Below are positions 25,344 through 50,547 of a stretch of 64,000 nucleotides of DNA, piece after piece. Origin of the DNA: Emergencia sp. (GTDB taxonomy: Bacteria; Bacillota; Clostridia; Peptostreptococcales; Anaerovoracaceae); NCBI GenBank assembly GCA_051883055.1, contig JBJESZ010000012.1:6844-70843 (forward strand), read 5' to 3'. How positions within the stretch are numbered: the stretch's first letter is position 1; every line of letters begins with the position of its first letter. Under the pieces are notes generated by a model, which did no database searches, was not told the DNA's origin, and saw only the letters and a program-made list of their open reading frames with translations. Both the position numbers and the translations under genes were made by a program.

Positions 25344-26366
25344 ATGGTAGAAGAAAGAATTACTCAGTCAGGGGCACTGGCTGCAGAGGAAAAGCAGGAG
25401 ACTACTCTCAGACCTCAGTTTCTGGACGATTTTATGGGACAGAAGACTGTAAAGGATAATCTGAAAATATTTATAGAGGCTGCAAAGCTGAGAGGCGAAC
25501 CACTTGACCACGTTCTGTTCTATGGCCCTCCGGGCCTGGGCAAGACCACCCTGGCAGGAATCATAGCAAATGAACTGGGAGTGGATATCAAGATAACATC
25601 GGGACCGGCAATAGAGCGAGCCGGTGACCTGGCAGCAATCCTGACCAATCTTAATGAGAATGATGTGCTTTTTATCGACGAAATACACAGACTTAACAGG
25701 TCGGTAGAAGAGGTTCTGTATTCTGCAATGGAGGACTATGCCCTGGACATCATAATAGGAAAAGGTCCCTCCGCCAGATCCATCCGTCTGGATATTGCAA
25801 AGTTTACCCTGATCGGTGCGACTACGAGAGCAGGAAGCCTTTCTGCACCTTTACGAGACCGTTTCGGAGTAATAAGCAAGTTTGAATTATATGACGATGA
25901 GGAGCTTGCACATATTATCAGGCGATCTGCCGGACTGCTCGGGGTGGAGGTTGATGAAAGCTCACTTATGGAGATGGCCAGATGTTCAAGAGGTACCCCG
26001 CGCGTAGCAAACAGACTGCTGAAAAGAATAAGAGATTTCTCTCAGGTGAGAGGAAACGGAGTAATTACGGAAGAAATAACTGCTGAGGCACTTAAGGCTC
26101 TGGGCGTTGACAGTCTGGGACTTGAGCGCCTGGACAGAGAAATACTGTCAGCAATCATACATAGATTTAACGGAGGTCCTGTAGGAATAGATACCATTGC
26201 GGCTTCCATAGGAGAAGAGCGTGTTACAATAGAGGATGCCTATGAGCCGTATTTAATACAATCGGGCTTGCTATATCGCACACAAAAAGGTAGAATGGTA
26301 TCTCGATTAGGTTACAAGCACCTGGGACTGGAGTATCCGGGAGAAGGAGAAGACAGTGAAAATTAG
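25344..26366 (+). CDS. ruvB: Holliday junction helicase RuvB
   Basis: [40 protein letters not shown]. Confidence 0.98.
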
Positions 26367-27399
26367 CGATTTTGATTACGAGCTTCCTGCAGAGCTGATA
26401 GCGCAGAGACCTGCAGAAAAGAGGGATGTCTGCCGCCTCATGGTAATGAACAGAGCCAAGGGGAGCATAGAACATAAACATTTTTATGATATTCTTGATT
26501 ATCTGAACAAGGGTGACTGCCTTATACTGAACAATTCCAAGGTACTGCCTGCACGTCTGTTCGGAGAGAAGGAGGGTACCGGAGCCAGGGTAGAGTTTCT
26601 GCTTATCAAGAGAATTGAGGGCGACCGCTGGGAAACCATGGTCAGACCGGGTAAGCGACTGAAACCGGGAGATGCGGTAAGCTTCGGAAAAAGTTTCAGA
26701 GCCGAGATTGTGGATTACGGCCCTGACGGCACGAGAATAGTAGATTTTAAATACGAAGGAATTTTTATGGAAAGGCTTGACGAGCTGGGAAAGATGCCGC
26801 TGCCTCCGTATATTGAGAGAGAAAGCACACCGGAAGACAAGGATATGTATCAGACTGTGTACTGCAAGGAGGAGGGCTCTGTTGCTGCACCGACAGCAGG
26901 GCTGCATTTTACAGACGAGCTTCTGAAAAAGGCAGAAGAAAAGGGCGTCAAGCTTGCCTACGTCACACTTCACGTTGGAATCGGTACTTTCAGACCGGTA
27001 AAATGTGAAAACGTGGAAGATCACAGCATGCATTTTGAAGAGTACTTCATAGATGAGGAAAATGCTGCACTCATAAACGATACTATCAGAGAAGGCGGCA
27101 GAATAATATCCGTGGGAACAACATCTACAAGAACCGTGGAAAGTGCCGCATACTTTGATGAGGAGCTGGGCAGATATCAGGTTGCCGAGGGTTCAGGCAG
27201 CACTGATATATTCATTTACCCCGGATATAAATTTAAGATTATAGAAGCTTTGATAACAAATTTTCATCTTCCGAAGTCGACTCTGCTGATGCTGATATCG
27301 GCGCTGTATGACAGAGAGAAGATTCTTGAGGCATACGAAATTGCCGTTAGGGAGAAATACCGTTTCTTCAGCTACGGAGACGCGTGCCTGATTATATAG
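26356..27399 (+). CDS. queA: SAM:tRNA ribosyltransferase-isomerase QueA
   Basis: [49 protein letters not shown]. Confidence 0.98.
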
Positions 27400-27420: not shown

Positions 27421-29734
<2,314 letters not shown>

Positions 29735-29749
29735 ATAAGGAGGAATTTA

Positions 29750-31333
29750 GTGTTAACAGTAACAAATGTAAGTATGAACTTTAGCGGGCAGATTCTGTTC
29801 AAGGATGTTGATCTTAAATTTACACAGGGCAACTGCTACGGTATAATCGGAGCAAACGGAGCCGGAAAATCAACCTTTCTGAGAATTCTGTCCGGAGATC
29901 TTGAACCTACAACAGGCACAGTATCACTGAAGCCGCATACAAGAATGTCCGTCCTTAAGCAGGACCACTTCGCTTTCGATGAATTCACAGTTCTGGATAC
30001 GGTAATTCAGGGAAATCCAAGACTTTATCAGGTAATGCAGGAAAAGGATGCTATATATATGAAGGAGGACTTCTCAGAGGAAGACGGTATCAGAGCTGCC
30101 GAGCTTGAGGCGGAATTCGCTGAAATGGACGGCTGGGAGGCCGATTCCAATGTAAGCAGGCTGATTCAGGGTCTGGGACTGTCAGAGGATATTCTGTACA
30201 GCCCGATGTCAGGGCTGACGGCAAAAGAAAAGGTTAAGGTTCTGCTTGCACAGGCGCTGTTCGGCAATCCGGAAATCGTACTTCTTGACGAGCCTACCAA
30301 CCATCTTGACATCAAAGCTATCAACTGGCTGGAGGAATTTCTTATGGAATATCCGGGAACAGTGCTGGTAGTATCCCATGACAGACATTTCCTGAACACT
30401 GTCTGCACCAATATAGTTGACGTAGACTACGGCAAGATTAAAATGTATGTAGGAAACTACGAGTTCTGGTATGAATCATCACAGCTGATGCAGAAGCTCC
30501 TTACGAACCAGAAGAAGAGAACTGAGGAGAAAATAAAGGAACTGCAGACATTTATCCAGCGTTTCAGCTCCAACAAATCCAAGGCAAAACAGGCCACATC
30601 AAGAAGGAAGCTGCTGGACAAGCTGACTATAGAAGAACTGCCTGCATCATCACGCCGCTATCCTTTTGTAGGTTTCACAATGGACAGGGAGGCAGGCAAG
30701 GATATTCTGCAGGTAGACAATCTATCCAAGACTATTGACGGTGTGAAGGTTCTTGACAACATTACCTTCAGAGTGAACAAAGGTGACAAAATAGCCTTTG
30801 TAGGCGAGAATGAAATAGCAAACACAACGCTGTTTAAAATCCTTATGGGAGAGATGGAGCCGGATGAAGGAAGCTACAAGTGGGGAATCACCATTACAAG
30901 CTCATATCTTCCGATAGATAATTCAGAGTACTTTAACGGTTCTGAATACAACATGATTGAATGGCTGAGCCAGTATACAAAGGAAACTACAGAAACCTTC
31001 ATGAGAAGCTTCCTTGGGAGAATGCTGTTCTCCGGAGACGATGTATACAAAAACGTACAGGTACTTTCCGGCGGAGAGAAGGTAAGATGTATGCTTTCAC
31101 GTATGATGCTTTACGGATCAAACGTTCTGGTTCTTGACCAGCCGACAAACCACCTGGATCTTGAATCCATTACCGCAGTAAACGAAGGTCTTATAAATTT
31201 CAAGGGAAATGTAATATTTGCATCACACGATCACGAATTCATTCAGACCATTGCAAACCGCATCATGGAAATCAGACCGGATGGAACCCTTATCGACAAG
31301 CTTTGCACATACGACGAATATATCGAGATGTAA
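29750..31333 (+). CDS. ABC-F family ribosome-associated ATPase (YkpA/YbiT-like)
   Basis: Two ABC domains and no TM helices; [19 protein letters not shown], inter-domain linker, LSGGEK; second site degenerate. Confidence 0.9.
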
Positions 31334-31353
31334 TTTCAGGAGGAAGCAAAAGC

Positions 31354-31905
31354 ATGGACAGTGAAAAAATAAAAGACGGAGTCCGCCTTATTCTGGAGGG
31401 AATAGGCGAAGATGTGAACAGAGAAGGTCTCCTTGAAACGCCGGACCGAATTGCACGTATGTGTGAACAGATTTTCGGAGGTCTGGAGCAGGACGCTTCA
31501 GTTCACTTTGAAAAGAAGTTTCATGCAGTGAACAACAACATAGTAATAGAAAAGGACATTATCTTTCATTCCGTGTGTGAACATCATCTTCTGCCGTTTT
31601 TCGGCAAGGCACATGTGGCATATATTCCAAATGAGAAGGTTGCGGGTCTGAGCAAGCTGGCACGCACCGTAGAGGTCTTTGCGAGAAGACCGCAGATTCA
31701 GGAAAACATGACGGCTCAGATTGCCGAAGCCGTGGAAAAGTATCTGGAGCCGAAGGGTGTAATGGTAATGCTTGAGGCAGAGCATATGTGTATGTCGATG
31801 CGCGGCGTTCAGAAACCGGGAACCAAGACAGTCACAACGATCACTAAGGGTGCTTTCGCTGAGGATTACAGTCTGCAGCAGACCTTCATGCAGATGGTGA
31901 AGTAG
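31354..31905 (+). CDS. folE: GTP cyclohydrolase I
   Basis: [39 protein letters not shown]; start moved to ATG 31354. Confidence 0.97.
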
Positions 31906-43895: not shown

Positions 43896-45209
43896 TTAAT
43901 CCTCTTTTTCTTTAGGAAGAATCAGGTTTGCCACTACTGCAACGATGAAAACAACAGCTACGCAGTTTTCCGCAAACACCGTGTATATTACAGGAGGGAA
44001 AATGCTGAATATTTCAGGAACCTGAGTGAAACCGATTCCGATACCGAGTGACAGTGCTGCTATAGTTATATTTCTCTGCTGGAAGCCGCAGGCCGCAAGC
44101 ATCTTTATTCCGCTGACAACGATGCTTCCGAACATCATAATCGTACAGCCTCCCAGAACCGCATCGGGCAGGGTAGCGAGCACCGCACCGAAAACAGGGA
44201 AGATACCTGCGAAAATCATGATAACAGCACCTGTAGCAATAACCATACGATTGACAACTCTTGTCATGGCAATAAGACCTACGTTCTGGCTGAAGGATGT
44301 AATAGGAAGACATCCCAGCAGGCCGGATAACACGCTAACATAACCGTCACAAGCAATAGAGCCCTCAGTTTCAGCAACTGTAACCTGACGATTCAGACCG
44401 GAAACAGCCATTGCTGATGTGTCACCGATTGTTTCTGTTGCGGAAACAAGGAAAATAAGCGTCATGGAAACTATTGCACTGAGATGGAATTCCGGCTTAA
44501 ACGGCAGGATGCTTGGAAGACTGATTATTGATGTGTCCTGAATTGTTGAAAAATCAACAACTCCCATGCAAATTGCAGCTATGTATCCAACAATCAGTCC
44601 GAAAAGAACGGACAGCTGTTTCCAGTAGGATTTAGCAAATATATCAAATATCAGGCAGCTTGCCAGAGTAATAGTACCCAGTATCCAGTTCTGTGCAGAT
44701 CCGAAGGTTTCACTTCCGGTTCCGCCTCCAAAGGATGATGCCCCTACAGAAAGAAGAGAAAAGCCAATGGCGGTTACCACACTGGCAGAAACGACAGGAG
44801 TGATAATCCTTGTCCAGTATTTTGCAAAAAGGCCGATTGTACCTTCAATCAGACCGCCTACTATAACTGCACCGATAACCGCATTGTAACCATACTGGCT
44901 TCCGATGACACATGCAACGGAAACGAAGGTAAAGCTTATTCCCATTACGATGGGAAGGCCGGAGCCTATTTTCCAGATTGGGAAAAGCTGAATAAGTGTA
45001 CCTATGCCGGCAATAATCATAGTGGTCTGTATAAGTGAGGCGGTCTGTCCGCTGCCTAATCCGCACGCTCCGGCTACTATGATAAGAGGTGCGATGTTCG
45101 CAACGAACATTGCCAGAATGTGCTGAAGTCCGAAGGGAACCGCTCTGGCAATAGGAACTCTGCCGTTAAGATTGTAAATATTTGAGATGTCGCTGTTTGA
45201 GCTGTTCAT
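43896..45209 (-). CDS. NCS2 nucleobase:cation symporter (uracil/xanthine family)
   Basis: GLQHILAMF, ETIGD, SFSQNVGLI, VLGG; lies downstream of upp. Confidence 0.93.
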   Translation of the reverse strand: MNSSNSDISNIYNLNGRVPIARAVPFGLQHILAMFVANIAPLIIVAGACGLGSGQTASLIQTTMIIAGIGTLIQLFPIWKIGSGLPIVMGISFTFVSVACVIGSQYGYNAVIGAVIVGGLIEGTIGLFAKYWTRIITPVVSASVVTAIGFSLLSVGASSFGGGTGSETFGSAQNWILGTITLASCLIFDIFAKSYWKQLSVLFGLIVGYIAAICMGVVDFSTIQDTSIISLPSILPFKPEFHLSAIVSMTLIFLVSATETIGDTSAMAVSGLNRQVTVAETEGSIACDGYVSVLSGLLGCLPITSFSQNVGLIAMTRVVNRMVIATGAVIMIFAGIFPVFGAVLATLPDAVLGGCTIMMFGSIVVSGIKMLAACGFQQRNITIAALSLGIGIGFTQVPEIFSIFPPVIYTVFAENCVAVVFIVAVVANLILPKEKED

Positions 45210-45254
45210 AATATTATCCTTTCAAAATGATTAAAATTACTGAGACTTATATAA

Positions 45255-45899
45255 TTACTTTGTGCCGAATATTCGATCTCCCGCATCTCCCAGACCCGGG
45301 CAGATATATGCATCATCGTTAAGCTCGCGATCAAGATGACCCACATAAATCTGAATATCAGGATGAGCATTGTGAAGCCTTTCAAGCCCTTCAGGTGCCG
45401 CAATTATACACATGAACTTGATGCTTTTTCCACCATATTTCTTTATCTGGCTTACTGCGTCCACTGCAGAGCCTCCGGTTGCAAGCATAGGGTCAGTAAC
45501 CACTATCGTACGCTCCTCTGCAGGTGAAGGAAGCTTGCAGTAATATTCCACCGGTTCGTGGGTCTCTTCGTCACGATACATTCCGATATGTCCGACCTTT
45601 GCTGTCGGTACAAGATTTAATACGCCGTCAACCATGCCGAGTCCTGCACGCAGAATAGGCACAACAGCAAGCTTGCGGCCGGCAATCATAGGTGTTCTGC
45701 ATTTTTCTATCGGCGTCTCAACCTCGACGTCCTCGAGAGGCAGGTCGCTCAGTGCAGCAAAACCCTCAAGCATGGCAATTTCTTCAACAAGCTTTCTGAA
45801 TTCATAGGTTCCGGTGTTCTTGTCTCTCAGCAGAGAAATCTTGTGCTGAATAAGAGGGTGGTCAAAAATAGTAATATTCTGTTCATTAAAAAAATCCAT
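45255..45899 (-). CDS. upp: Uracil phosphoribosyltransferase
   Basis: [40 protein letters not shown]; start moved to ATG 45899. Confidence 0.98.
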
Positions 45900-46057
45900 G
45901 AGAAATCTCCTTTTTCGCAGTATATGTACCATTGTAAATGTTTTTATTGAATTTGTCACTTTGTTTATCATTTTTTGCACTCTTGAATTTAGTATTAGGC
46001 TGAAGTATCATATATAATACGGGTGTGTGTAATGATTTTCATTGTTACACTCCAAGC

Positions 46058-46108
46058 CAAGCAGTTCGGGTCCGATATCCTGCTTGTAAAACATTAAAAC
46101 CAAAGGAG
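46058..46108 (+). ncRNA. preQ1 riboswitch candidate (class I-like, translational)
   Basis: Stem CAAGCAG/CTGCTTG closes the loop TTCGGGTCCGATATC (starts UUCG, ends AUC, as in type I preQ1-I); an A-rich tail TAAAACATTAAAACC runs into SD AAAGGAG; directly upstream of a YhhQ/VUT transporter. Confidence 0.68.
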
Positions 46109-46116
46109 AAAGAAAA

Positions 46117-46845
46117 ATGAATTATCTGAAAAGAGAGTTAGAGGATTTAAAAATCCTGCTCAGGAATGTACCGAGCCTGGTGGTGTCGCTGTTTTTTATC
46201 AGTGTAATTGTAATGAACCTGCTGGCAAACAAGGAGCTGTTTTCGGCTAAGTATCTTGCACTGGATTGTGGCTTTACCGTAAGCTGGATCTCATTCCTGT
46301 GCATGGACATGATCTGCAAGCATTTTGGTCCTAAGGCAGCAGCGAAGATCTCAATTATGGCGCTTCTGATCAACCTTGGTGTCTGCCTGTTGTTTAAGCT
46401 TATGAGCCTGACACCGGGAATGTGGGGAGAATTCTACGCATTCGGTTCTGATGATGTCAACCAGGCACTCAATAATACAATAGGCGGAAGCTGGTATGTG
46501 GTTTTTGGCAGCAGTCTGGCAATGCTTGTGTCTGCAATATGCAATTCTGTGATAAATCACACAATTGCTAAGAGACTGAAAACTGATGATTACAAGGCAT
46601 TTGCCATCCGCTCATTCACGTCAACAGGAATAGCTCAGTTCGTTGACAATCTTGTATTTGCAACTGTTGTATCCCATGTATTCTTTGGGTGGACATGGGT
46701 TCAGGTTCTGACATGCTCACTGACAGGTGCAGCAATGGAGCTTTTGGGAGAGGTGATTCTGAGTCCTGTCGGATACAGAGCCAGCCACAACTGGAAAAGG
46801 GACGGTGTGGGCAAGGAGTACCTTAAATATATAGGAGAAAAATAA
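46117..46845 (+). CDS. VUT/YhhQ-family queuosine-precursor transporter
   Basis: NLLANK, DCGFTVSW.SFLCMDMICKHFG, R...STGIAQFVDNLVF, about 6 TM helices; preQ1-like leader. Confidence 0.82.
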   Translation: MNYLKRELEDLKILLRNVPSLVVSLFFISVIVMNLLANKELFSAKYLALDCGFTVSWISFLCMDMICKHFGPKAAAKISIMALLINLGVCLLFKLMSLTPGMWGEFYAFGSDDVNQALNNTIGGSWYVVFGSSLAMLVSAICNSVINHTIAKRLKTDDYKAFAIRSFTSTGIAQFVDNLVFATVVSHVFFGWTWVQVLTCSLTGAAMELLGEVILSPVGYRASHNWKRDGVGKEYLKYIGEK

Positions 46846-46846
46846 A

Positions 46847-47512
46847 ATGAATATATTGATTACAGGAACGTCCGCAGGAATCGGGAAAGCGATTGCTGAG
46901 AAGTTTCTGGATAAGAACCATAAAGTATGGGGCTTTGACAAAGATGAGAGCAGCATATGCAGGGAAGGATACACTCATTTTCAACTCGATGTAAGAGATG
47001 AAGCCGCGTATCCTCCTGATTTGAAACCGGAGATTATTATCAACAATGCCGGAGTGCAGGACAGCGGAGAAGATATTGACATCAATCTTAAGGGTGTCAT
47101 AAAAATAACCGAGCACTATGCGTTTCACAATGAAAACATTCGTTCCGTTGTGAATATCGGATCTGCCAGTGCTCACACAGGATCAGAATTTCCTGAATAT
47201 GCCGCCTCCAAGGGCGGGCTGATAGCTTACACGAAAAATGTAGCAAACCGTCTGGCGCCTCAGGCTATATGCAACAGTATAGATCCGGGAGGAGTTTTGA
47301 CAGAACTTAACCGCTGCGTTATGGATGACCCAAAGCTTTGGGAACAGATTATGGAGCTGACCCCTCTTAAAAGATGGGCTTCACCTGAGGAAATCGCAGA
47401 ATGGGTGTATTTTGTTGCAGTAGAAAACCGCTTTATGACGGGACAGAATCTGCTTATTGACGGGGGCGAAGCAGGAAATACTAAATTTATCTGGCCTGAT
47501 ATGCCGGAGTAG
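46847..47512 (+). CDS. Short-chain dehydrogenase/reductase (classical SDR, probably NAD-specific)
   Basis: TGTSAGIG, Asp after beta-2 (GFDKD), NNAG, catalytic Ser and YAASK, TGQNLLIDGG. Confidence 0.92.
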   Translation: MNILITGTSAGIGKAIAEKFLDKNHKVWGFDKDESSICREGYTHFQLDVRDEAAYPPDLKPEIIINNAGVQDSGEDIDINLKGVIKITEHYAFHNENIRSVVNIGSASAHTGSEFPEYAASKGGLIAYTKNVANRLAPQAICNSIDPGGVLTELNRCVMDDPKLWEQIMELTPLKRWASPEEIAEWVYFVAVENRFMTGQNLLIDGGEAGNTKFIWPDMPE

Positions 47513-47542
47513 CTGAAAATAGTTTTGACAAAAAGGAGATAA

Positions 47543-49042
<1,500 letters not shown>

Positions 49043-49066: not shown

Positions 49067-49774
49067 ATGAGTGACAGCATTGTTTTTCAGATAAGAGAAA
49101 GACTCAATGAGCTGCAGGACCTGAAATATAAGGAGTTTCAGTCACGTCTTATACCAACCGTTGATCCGGATACTGTAATTGGTGTAAGAACACCTGAATT
49201 GAGAAAGCTTGCAAAAGAACTGTCGGACATCGAGGGAATAGAGGTATTTACAGGTGATGTTCCGCATAAGTATTACGAAGAAAATATTCTTCATGGGCTG
49301 ATAATTGAAAAGTGCAGAGACTTCGGCAGGCTGGTTCAGCTCCTTGATGAATTCCTTCCGTATGTTGACAACTGGGCAGTATGTGATATCCTGAGTCCCA
49401 AACTTTTCAAAAAGTATCCTGAAGAGGCAATGAATGAGATAAGAAGATGGATTGATGACGATGCACCTTATACTAAACGTTTTGGCATAGAAATGCTTAT
49501 GAGCTTCTATCTGGATGACAACTTTAAAGCTGAGTATCTTGAGCTTGTAAGTGCAATCCGCTCGGATGAGTACTACGTTAACATGATGATTGCCTGGTTT
49601 TTTGCCACAGCGCTGGCAAAGCAATGGGATTCTGCTGTTACATATATTGAAGAGGGCAGGATGGATGACTGGACACATAATAAGACAATACAAAAGGCGG
49701 TTGAAAGCTACAGGATAACTGATGAACAGAAGAGTTATCTGAGAACGTTTAAGAAAAGAGGGTTTCAGAAATGA
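49067..49774 (+). CDS. DNA alkylation repair glycosylase (AlkD family)
   Basis: GVRTPELRK, VDNWAVCD, YYVNMMIAW, HNKTIQKAVESYR. Confidence 0.85.
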   Translation: MSDSIVFQIRERLNELQDLKYKEFQSRLIPTVDPDTVIGVRTPELRKLAKELSDIEGIEVFTGDVPHKYYEENILHGLIIEKCRDFGRLVQLLDEFLPYVDNWAVCDILSPKLFKKYPEEAMNEIRRWIDDDAPYTKRFGIEMLMSFYLDDNFKAEYLELVSAIRSDEYYVNMMIAWFFATALAKQWDSAVTYIEEGRMDDWTHNKTIQKAVESYRITDEQKSYLRTFKKRGFQK

Positions 49775-50547
49775 GTTTATTTGAATCATACGACAGCGAA
49801 GTGAAGGCAGCATTAAATCCGGAAGATGTATACGACAAGGTAGATGGATTTCCTGAAACCGTCATTGTAACATTTAAGAAGGCAATAGTTGACCTTGTTC
49901 TTGAAAATTTTGAATGCGAGCCTGTAGGCACGCTGCTGAGCGGAACAGTACTGAAGATATACAGGTTCACAGTTGACGGTCAGGATATGGCAATCTATCA
50001 GACCACTATGGGTTCTCCCATGACGGCTGCACTTATGGAGGAGGTAATTGCCATGGGTGGAAAAAGGTTCGTATTCTTTGGATCATGTGGAACTCTCGAC
50101 AGAAATATTCCGGCCGGTCATCTTATTATTCCAACAGATGCATATCGTGATGAGGGTACAAGTTATCACTACAGGCCTGTCTCATATGGGGATTTCGTAC
50201 ATATTCCAACAGCTTCTCAGACAGCGGAAGTAATAAGAAGGATGGGACTGAAAGCTATTGAAACAAAGGTATGGACCACAGATGGCCTGTACAGAGAAAC
50301 CAGAAGAAACATGCAAAACAGACTGGAAGCCGGATGCAGGGTTGTAGATATGGAGTGTTCTGCAATTATGACTGTTGCAGAATACAGAGGGATACCTGCG
50401 TGGCAGTTCCTGTATGCAGAAGATAATCTTGACGATATTGTATGGGATCCGAGAACTATGGGGAAGGTTCCTAAGTCAGCAAATGAATTATATCTTAAGG
50501 TGGCATTAGAGATTGCAAAGGAGACTGCATCCAATGAGCAGAAATAA
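49771..50547 (+). CDS. Nucleoside phosphorylase (PNP/UDP family)
   Basis: FFGSCGTL, RDEGTSYHY, WTTDGLYRET, VDMECSA. Confidence 0.88.
   Translation: MSLFESYDSEVKAALNPEDVYDKVDGFPETVIVTFKKAIVDLVLENFECEPVGTLLSGTVLKIYRFTVDGQDMAIYQTTMGSPMTAALMEEVIAMGGKRFVFFGSCGTLDRNIPAGHLIIPTDAYRDEGTSYHYRPVSYGDFVHIPTASQTAEVIRRMGLKAIETKVWTTDGLYRETRRNMQNRLEAGCRVVDMECSAIMTVAEYRGIPAWQFLYAEDNLDDIVWDPRTMGKVPKSANELYLKVALEIAKETASNEQK

Follow-up and report, generated by a model that had tools for sequence, protein, structure and literature searches.

A candidate queuosine-salvage dehydrogenase coupled to a Vut_1 transporter behind a variant preQ1-I-like leader in Emergencia sp.

What might a small NAD-type dehydrogenase be doing in queuosine (Q) metabolism? 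The question is raised by a locus in a 64,000-nucleotide stretch of DNA from Emergencia sp. (GenBank assembly GCA_051883055.1, contig JBJESZ010000012.1, positions 6,844 to 70,843; this whole stretch is called the window, and all coordinates are window positions on the forward strand unless stated otherwise), in which a structured leader RNA (46056-46109) is followed by the genes for a membrane transporter (46117-46845) and a short-chain dehydrogenase/reductase (SDR; 46847-47512). Animals depend entirely on their diet and microbiota for the micronutrient queuine, and Q precursors are an object of competition among gut bacteria. The known conversion of queuine back to preQ1 requires QueL, a radical-SAM enzyme sensitive to oxygen, and many bacteria that free or import queuine are without it. 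The original prediction, made from the sequence alone, had read the locus as a preQ1 riboswitch in front of a YhhQ-family importer and an SDR that would be a new enzyme of the Q pathway, possibly in place of QueL. On balance the analysis described here leans the same way: we favour, if only modestly, the joint reading in which the two genes form a salvage operon for queuosine precursors under a preQ1-type pseudoknot riboswitch and the SDR stands in for QueL as a non-orthologous enzyme, making preQ1 from salvaged queuine. The new-enzyme proposal is supported by conservation of the gene pair, by gene fusions, by the appearance of the SDR in the operon slot of QueL, by mirror-image importer pairs, by zero overlap with QueL-like genes and by gaps in the pathway.

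Both open reading frames (ORFs) were as first described, the SDR start codon lying 1 nt past the transporter stop. The SDR (P0002, 221 aa) is a classical member of its superfamily, matching Pfam adh_short_C2 with 95 bits and also adh_short; in NCBIfam only generic SDR models were matched, all under their equivalog cut-offs. The residues of the TGxxxGxG motif (T6-G7-x3-G11-x-G13) and the catalytic N80, S106, Y118 and K122 were invariant in 76 orthologues, as was Asp31, which occupies the NAD-type position at the end of beta-2. By the established classification of SDRs, an acidic residue ending beta-2 marks a preference for NAD(H) over NADP(H), and from its residues the enzyme looks catalytically competent and of the NAD type. 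An AlphaFold model (predicted local distance difference test score, pLDDT, 90.9) had generic SDRs as fold neighbours (template-modelling score, TM, 0.8), and sequence and fold searches of solved structures returned aldohexose dehydrogenase, 4-hydroxyisoleucine dehydrogenase, FabG and EntA-type enzymes; these relatives, acting on sugars, hydroxy-amino acids and acyl carriers, reveal nothing about the substrate. The family comprised at least 7,644 clusters (E ≤ 1e-40) in a large protein collection, and those with names bore only generic labels ('SDR family oxidoreductase' or similar).

The transporter (P0001, 242 aa) matched Pfam Vut_1 (PF02592) with 84.8 bits (cut-off 27.2) over profile positions 2-151 of 152. 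Its proposed YhhQ membership stood at the level of the Vut_1/QPTR superfamily and not at that of the NCBIfam QPTR/YhhQ equivalog, TIGR00697, the cut-off of which was missed (41.3 bits against 50.95). Within the same bacterial family, the canonical QPTR genes paired with QueL-like genes scored 114-157 bits with this model, and P0001 was only 21% identical to such a canonical partner. Common to P0001 and QPTR/YhhQ (COG1738) are the Vut_1 fold family, a similar size, riboswitch control and occurrence in Q-salvaging genomes; P0001 differs in belonging to a divergent subfamily that almost always has the SDR behind it and is sometimes fused to it. Import of a Q precursor by P0001 is suggested by the riboswitch-like leader and by the genomic context.

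The 54-nt leader element, which would combine aptamer and expression platform, was almost invariant in 43 loci with unrelated flanks. Its stem P1 has 6 bp (46059-46064 with 46080-46085) and closes a 15-nt loop (46065-46079) with UUC at the 5' end and AUC at the 3' end, the last loop base (C46079) being the putative specificity cytosine. An A-rich tail ending AAAACC leads into the Shine-Dalgarno sequence of the transporter gene (GGAGA, 46105-46109, 8 nt before the ATG), and in stem P2 the loop bases UCC (46071-46073) pair with the first three Shine-Dalgarno bases, GGA (46105-46107). This pairing was chosen over a first guess, loop GGG with CC of the tail, because it covaries; the GGG positions varied freely (UAA, UAC, UCC, UGU, GGC) while the tail was constant. 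Among 22 distinct leaders, all 198 cells of P1 and P2 were paired, with both-side changes in four of the six P1 pairs and two of the three P2 pairs; the observed covariation score was reached by none of 500 shuffles, and slid controls were 42-51% paired. U10, U11, C12, A22, U23, C24 and the tail AAAACC were invariant in the same leaders, and by analogy these loop and tail bases would contact the ligand.

Because Rfam scans gave no PreQ1 match, the scan of the family-level Vut_1-SDR loci included, a covariance model of our own (R1) was built from the variant leaders. It returned 43 strong matches (59-84 bits), all directly 5' of the transporter in transporter-SDR loci, with additional matches in three viral contigs and a further bacterial locus. 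The leader in the window scored 81.4 bits and was the sole copy in its genome. A transcriptional variant (D) was kept out of the model, a MAFFT alignment containing it having misaligned P1. On the 5' side of the aptamer lies a P0-like hairpin (46021-46052), the sequence of which is not conserved; a hairpin at that position recurred in most related loci. In ViennaRNA folds of the 45 nt upstream, it ended 0-4 nt before the aptamer in about three quarters of 40 copies, the folds giving a modest signal (mean z -1.6 relative to shuffles).

The known relative is the preQ1-I riboswitch (RF00522), an H-type pseudoknot with a P1 of 5-6 bp, of which types I-III have been distinguished (McCown et al. 2014; reviewed in PMC11625349). 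In class I aptamers a U follows the 5' P1 strand, a specificity C precedes the 3' P1 strand and L3 is A-rich, and in translational switches of this class the Shine-Dalgarno sequence is occluded upon ligand binding (PMC11625349). The leader agrees with preQ1-I in being a small H-type pseudoknot with P2 reaching into the Shine-Dalgarno sequence, in the U or UU after the 5' P1 strand, in the C immediately before the 3' P1 strand and the U preceding it (as in type I), in an A-rich L3 or tail containing a conserved C, and in its position in front of a gene for a Q-precursor transporter. It departs in two lengths. The loop has grown from about 12 to 15 nt and holds a variable insert of 3 nt behind UUC, and P1 is separated from the 3' P2 strand by a tail of about 19 nt, where preQ1-I has about 8 (L3, about 6-8 nt). 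The insert and the long tail probably explain the lack of an Rfam match.

Intermediate forms were found in the window's own family (Anaerovoracaceae). More distant transporter-SDR loci carry a transcriptional version of the leader with a terminator, and operons that combine a QueL-like gene with QPTR have preQ1-I-like leaders with 12-nt loops and terminators; for one of the latter (L106), RF00522 was the top Rfam match with 24.7 bits, which falls short of the 39-bit gathering score. The leaders thus pass by degrees from canonical preQ1-I into the window's form. The proposed preQ1 riboswitch was in this way borne out as a conserved, covarying pseudoknot of preQ1-I architecture, and its label was left unconfirmed by Rfam. 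We regard the leader as a real structured regulatory RNA of that architecture, which by analogy would be an OFF switch acting through Shine-Dalgarno occlusion; its ligand is most likely preQ1, a label that rests on the architecture and on the intermediate forms. A second aptamer variant was observed about 45 nt 5' of Vut_1 in Olsenella and other Atopobiaceae (L028, L031, L033, L037, L038, L043, L047, L052, L054 and L059), with P1 unchanged (AAGCAG/CUGCUU), a 13-nt loop (5' UCCC, 3' AAC) and a tail ending CCGGGAGA; its P2 would pair CCC with GGG, and it scored only 16-20 bits with R1.

If the SDR belongs functionally with the transporter, the two genes should stay together as their surroundings change, and this was found. 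SDR orthologues were present in 11 of the 201 genomes of the window's family, ten of which had the transporter directly 5' of the SDR, with flanking genes that differ outside the genus. A scan with one genome per prokaryote species gave at least 570 SDR relatives; in the best 80 of these loci, which were compared further (SDR identity 58-83%), the transporter was immediately 5' of the SDR in 63. Hosts of the 80 loci were Lachnospiraceae, Mogibacterium/Anaerovoracaceae, Oscillospiraceae, Erysipelotrichaceae, Olsenella and other Atopobiaceae, Collinsella and Slackia. Conservation of the pair, on which the original prediction had hinged, thus extends over Bacillota and Actinomycetota, persists down to 41-47% transporter identity and is seen also in phages. 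Three protein clusters (P0125-P0127) consist of single-polypeptide Vut_1::SDR fusions.

Some loci and proteins depart from this layout. The sole family-level SDR orthologue without a transporter (L011, G016:C2:39851-48504; 52% identity, one in-frame TAG reported) adjoins a pbuX-like permease gene and may be a decaying or re-purposed copy. In GCA_024685195.1 (L118:4218-6443) a variant leader (48 bits) precedes Vut_1 and then a 480-aa SDR::AraD protein; such SDR::AraD proteins formed two clusters (P0129 and P0130), one with 29 member sequences. The AraD half was considered as a partner for enediolate elimination and set aside, being a bona fide AraD (L-ribulose-5-phosphate 4-epimerase, 347 bits) with no homologue near the other loci; the fusion is probably a read-through into a neighbouring gene, and a class II aldolase-fold partner for the enediolate step is conceivable. 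A 403-aa protein of Blautia wexlerae annotated as an SDR (P0123) has the length of an energy-coupling factor (ECF) S-component plus the SDR of the Blautia-type operon described next, in which the ECF-S stop and SDR start overlap (TGATG); a genuine fusion could account for it, as could a frameshift or an error of annotation.

A link of the SDR to Q salvage came from the 17 of the 80 loci that lack Vut_1. The one annotated gene by gene (L057, Blautia wexlerae) consists of an IU-type, QueK-like nucleoside hydrolase gene, an ECF S-component gene and, as third gene, the SDR; the same layout was assumed for the others, among them loci of Muricoprocola, Jingyaoa, Bariatricus and Dorea. Of the eight Vut_1-less loci that were searched, seven had a canonical Rfam PreQ1 aptamer 5' of the operon (49-54.5 bits). 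In C. difficile a preQ1 riboswitch precedes queK-qrtT-queL, the same layout with QueL where the SDR stands in L057, according to PMC11477304 and PMC11130926, which summarise Yuan et al. 2019. When the hydrolase was used as query on 399 genomes of the class, five loci had a PreQ1 aptamer, a hydrolase (49-59% identical to that of L057), an ECF S-component and a 229-aa radical-SAM protein, which gave weak Radical_SAM and RaSEA matches, is distantly related to RaSEA and was taken, on its sequence, to be QueL-like. Two further loci of the class (L093/G532 and L094/G295) had the hydrolase/ECF-S pair with a 50%-identical SDR adjacent and convergent; no PreQ1 match was found within their 1.5-kb flanks, and two methyltransferase genes lie upstream. 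In the window's family the QueL-like gene adjoins a canonical QPTR gene in five of six loci, mirroring the Vut_1-SDR pairs, so that both importer types pair with either a QueL-like gene or the SDR.

The SDR and QueL thus share their operon slot, two kinds of partner importer (ECF-S with a QueK-like hydrolase, or Vut_1), the riboswitch class upstream and a mutually exclusive distribution in the sampled genomes, a context that suggests functional analogy. They share neither sequence nor fold, the SDR having a Rossmann fold and NAD in place of an Fe-S cluster; the chemistry must differ from that of QueL because the enzyme is an NAD-type SDR and not a radical-SAM Fe-S protein. At the level of the operon, the window's locus resembles C. 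difficile queK-qrtT-queL in being a putative Q-precursor salvage operon, probably repressed through a preQ1-type riboswitch, in coupling an importer to an enzyme expected to yield preQ1 in a host with a preQ1-type Tgt, and in that close relatives of its SDR are the third gene of homologous hydrolase/ECF-S operons. C. difficile lacks queCDEF; in the window's genome QueC and QueF were not found, and QueD and QueE were not searched for. The window's operon differs in having no QueK-like hydrolase and no ECF S-component, a Vut_1 importer instead, an NAD-type SDR for the radical-SAM enzyme, and an aptamer outside the Rfam model. It appears to work like the C. difficile operon without being a member of its type, since importer family, enzyme family and aptamer variant all differ.

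Viral sequences supplied a third, independent link of the SDR to preQ1. In IMG/VR, 11 viral contigs encode the SDR (51-62% identity), with the transporter upstream in five, and one phage contig (L113) has the order Vut_1, SDR, one unknown gene, QueF (105 bits), QueC, QueD, QueE and FolE; a tblastn search of GenBank phages (E ≤ 1e-30) gave no SDR match. This operon resembles phage dPreQ1 DNA-modification operons of the Streptococcus phage Dp-1 type, with Vut_1-SDR placed upstream of QueF, QueC, QueD, QueE and FolE. The window's locus is unlike these phage operons in lying on a bacterial chromosome without DpdA, in feeding a pathway of tRNA modification and in having no biosynthetic genes (QueC and QueF not found; QueD and QueE not searched for).

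The gene content of the host agrees with a need for preQ1 from outside. As the prediction had stated, preQ1-type Tgt, QueA and QueH are all present: QueA (26356-27399; NCBIfam equivalog, 487.5 bits) and Tgt (27442-28563; TIGR00430, 584 bits) belong to the pathway that the operon would feed, and QueH, the epoxyqueuosine reductase, lies at 381-911 (Pfam QueH, 224 bits; G000:C12:7224-7754). Tgt, for which only the window's own genome was searched, retained D156-E-C158 and G-G-L-S-V233-G-E in an alignment to Zymomonas mobilis TGT, and with them the Cys158 and Val233 of the bacterial preQ1-inserting type. QueA acts on preQ1-tRNA and QueH carries out the last step of Q formation. Both were also present in four relatives (96-99% complete), and no true QueC or QueF was found in these or in the window's genome, in which QueL was likewise not found. 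Weak Pfam matches to QueF in SDR-bearing genomes proved to be FolE (GTP cyclohydrolase I, at 31303-31905 in the window, where it presumably serves folate synthesis), and weak QueC matches were other PP-loop ATPases. The organism needs outside preQ1 because Tgt, QueA and QueH are present and no QueC, QueF or QueL was found. Five isolates with the hydrolase/ECF-S/SDR operon also had QueA, and searches for QueC, QueF and QueL-like genes found none in them; by their gene content, such hosts would be able to free queuine from queuosine, yet the known enzymes give them no use for it.

The QueL-like and SDR genes did not occur together in any genome sampled: in the family sample the SDR was present in 11 and the QueL-like gene in 12 of the 201 genomes, and in the class sample in 28 and 29 of the 399 genomes, respectively, with an overlap of 0 in both. 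In the class sample the two alternate inside families f30 and f41 and genus g144. The five genomes with QueL-like operons held only generic SDR paralogues (43-61 bits).

From these observations the following sequence of events can be proposed. When its ligand, most likely preQ1, is plentiful, the pseudoknot would be stabilised, P2 would form between UCC and the Shine-Dalgarno GGA, and ribosomes would be kept from binding; when preQ1 is scarce, the divergent Vut_1/QPTR-type importer and the translationally coupled, NAD-dependent SDR would be made. The importer would bring in queuine or a close derivative, and the SDR would use NAD+ to oxidise a hydroxyl of queuine's cyclopentenediol, a plausible reaction, the substrate being a cyclic allylic diol and the enzyme an NAD+-dependent SDR. 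The amine would leave the resulting hydroxy-ketone through elimination, or else tautomerisation would give an imine that is then hydrolysed, and preQ1 would be set free for Tgt. The OFF logic of the switch suits production of preQ1 by the enzyme better than its consumption. A 2025 preprint describes a non-orthologous replacement of QueL as 'yet to be discovered' (10.1101/2025.10.13.681863). Our literature searches returned no SDR in Q metabolism or salvage and no such aptamer variant or new preQ1 riboswitch class.

Several points weigh against this reading. With the Rfam PreQ1 model the leader had no match at the gathering score, none at E ≤ 10 in the 201 nt at 45950-46150, and none at its position when the whole genome was scanned at E ≤ 10; its longer loop and much longer tail could mean an altered specificity. 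No recognisable riboswitch was found by our own scan or with R1 within 400 nt upstream of the pairs L007, L012, L077, L079, L082-L084, L086, L089 and L092 (the Rfam scan covered L007 and L012 only), which form a more distant subgroup with 41-47% transporter identity. An importer taking up preQ1 itself could leave the SDR without obvious need. The proposed anti-correlation with queL showed as zero overlap in both samples and is statistically weak: about 0.7 shared genomes in the family and about 2.0 in the class were expected by chance, giving a combined P of about 0.06 with relatedness ignored, and related genomes not being independent, the exclusivity is consistent with displacement without weighing heavily. 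The window's genome is 78.65% complete, making absences there weak evidence, and it is the near-complete relatives that carry the argument from pathway holes. To our knowledge, no citable precedent for SDR-catalysed C-N cleavage of queuine has been described, and the reading as a whole is drawn from comparative genomics.

Among the alternatives, the most serious, which we consider unlikely and yet far from negligible, keeps the SDR in Q or 7-deazaguanine salvage and assigns it another step: its substrate might be the queuosine nucleoside, epoxyqueuine or some other base derived from Q, or its role might be the reductive detoxification of the reactive cyclopentenone fragment, preQ1 being released by another activity. 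The context evidence places the SDR in the preQ1 regulon and with importers of Q precursors without fixing its substrate, SDRs commonly reduce reactive carbonyls, and the nearest solved relatives give no hint. Against this stands the precise position of the SDR in the QueL slot, and also the gene content of the genomes in which a riboswitch, a QueK-like hydrolase, an ECF S-component and the SDR come together, which keep QueA and in which no QueL-like gene, QueC or QueF was found; the queuine made by the hydrolase would there be a dead end, because nothing else would release preQ1 if the SDR did not. That the leader senses a ligand other than preQ1, and that the pair salvages some other compound with a guanine-like face, such as a pterin, is improbable. 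SDRs such as sepiapterin and pteridine reductases do act on pterins, and the failure of the Rfam model and the standing of the transporter below the QPTR equivalog cut-off can be counted on the same side, as can the altered-specificity variants known in other riboswitch classes (PMC11625349). The same SDR family, however, lies behind canonical PreQ1 aptamers and, in a phage, within an operon with QueF, QueC, QueD and QueE, and the variant leader has kept the U that follows P1, the A-rich tail and the specificity C ahead of the 3' P1 strand, and grades into the 12-nt-loop leaders for which RF00522 was the best Rfam match.

A passenger role for the SDR, with the transporter alone explaining salvage by importing preQ1, we hold to be very improbable. 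Tgt, QueA and QueH would indeed require only preQ1; glpK, starting 33 nt 3' of the SDR stop with no terminator predicted in between, illustrates that unrelated genes can join the transcript, and the SDR::AraD fusion is probably itself a read-through. A passenger would nevertheless hardly stay paired with the transporter down to the observed identity, in two phyla and in phages and with changing flanks, or be fused to it, or recur with another importer type behind canonical preQ1 riboswitches. Least probable of all is that the SDR provides a QueF-independent route from imported preQ0 to preQ1, which the original prediction had offered as an alternative. The four-electron reduction of a nitrile, as in the established mechanism of QueF, is not classical SDR chemistry, Asp31 points to NAD and not NADPH, and in Lachnospiraceae the SDR comes after a nucleoside hydrolase, implying a nucleoside-derived substrate. 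The anti-correlation with queF expected under that proposal held in that no true QueF was found in the SDR-bearing bacterial genomes searched, and it broke down in phage L113, where a single gene separates the SDR from a bona fide QueF; this argues against replacement of QueF by the SDR, because the true QueF is in the same operon. Import of preQ0 by YhhQ-type transporters (PMC5372724) is in its favour.

Beyond the window, and more tentatively, the SDR family as a whole could be an Fe-S-independent, NAD-dependent, queuine-cleaving regenerator of preQ1, found widely among Bacillota and Actinomycetota of the gut and rumen and among their phages, mostly placed under a previously unrecognised fourth preQ1-I subtype (15-nt loop, long tail), and filling the missing-QueL gap of QueK-positive, QueL-negative bacteria. 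If QueL replacement by the SDR is correct, 7-deazaguanine metabolism would gain a new kind of enzyme chemistry, that of a small NAD-dependent dehydrogenase, the list of gut species predicted to be Q 'users' would have to be revised, the transporter-SDR pair in phages that place preQ1 in their DNA would be explained, and thousands of proteins now called 'SDR family oxidoreductase' would gain a specific name. The leader would also stretch the smallest known riboswitch class to sequences that Rfam does not detect.

The surroundings of the operon were also inspected. A promoter-like site, TTGAAT-17 nt-TATCAT (45983-46011), found as a consensus match, is the predicted promoter of the leader-transporter-SDR transcript, and its hexamers are retained in genus relatives (L003 and L004) despite differing surroundings. 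The divergent 5' neighbours are the xanthine permease gene pbuX and the uracil phosphoribosyltransferase gene upp (43896-45980, reverse strand), which put the operon in a small nucleobase-salvage neighbourhood; the listed start of upp (GTG, 241 aa) makes it about 34 residues longer than family models. The genes flanking the operon in the window are mutually unrelated. On the 3' side, glpK (glycerol kinase, 846 bits; 47513-49042) has its own Shine-Dalgarno sequence, and read-through from the riboswitch-controlled transcript may occur; glpK lies directly 3' of the SDR only within the genus (L003 and L004) and is on the opposite side of the pair in L009. Two to three genes 3' of the SDR (49067-50547), and syntenic in the genus, are a gene of the DNA_alkylation-repair family and a PNP_UDP_1 nucleoside phosphorylase/nucleosidase-like gene. 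The latter scored below every NCBIfam cut-off; its product, encoded close to a candidate Q-base importer, might conceivably act on queuosine.

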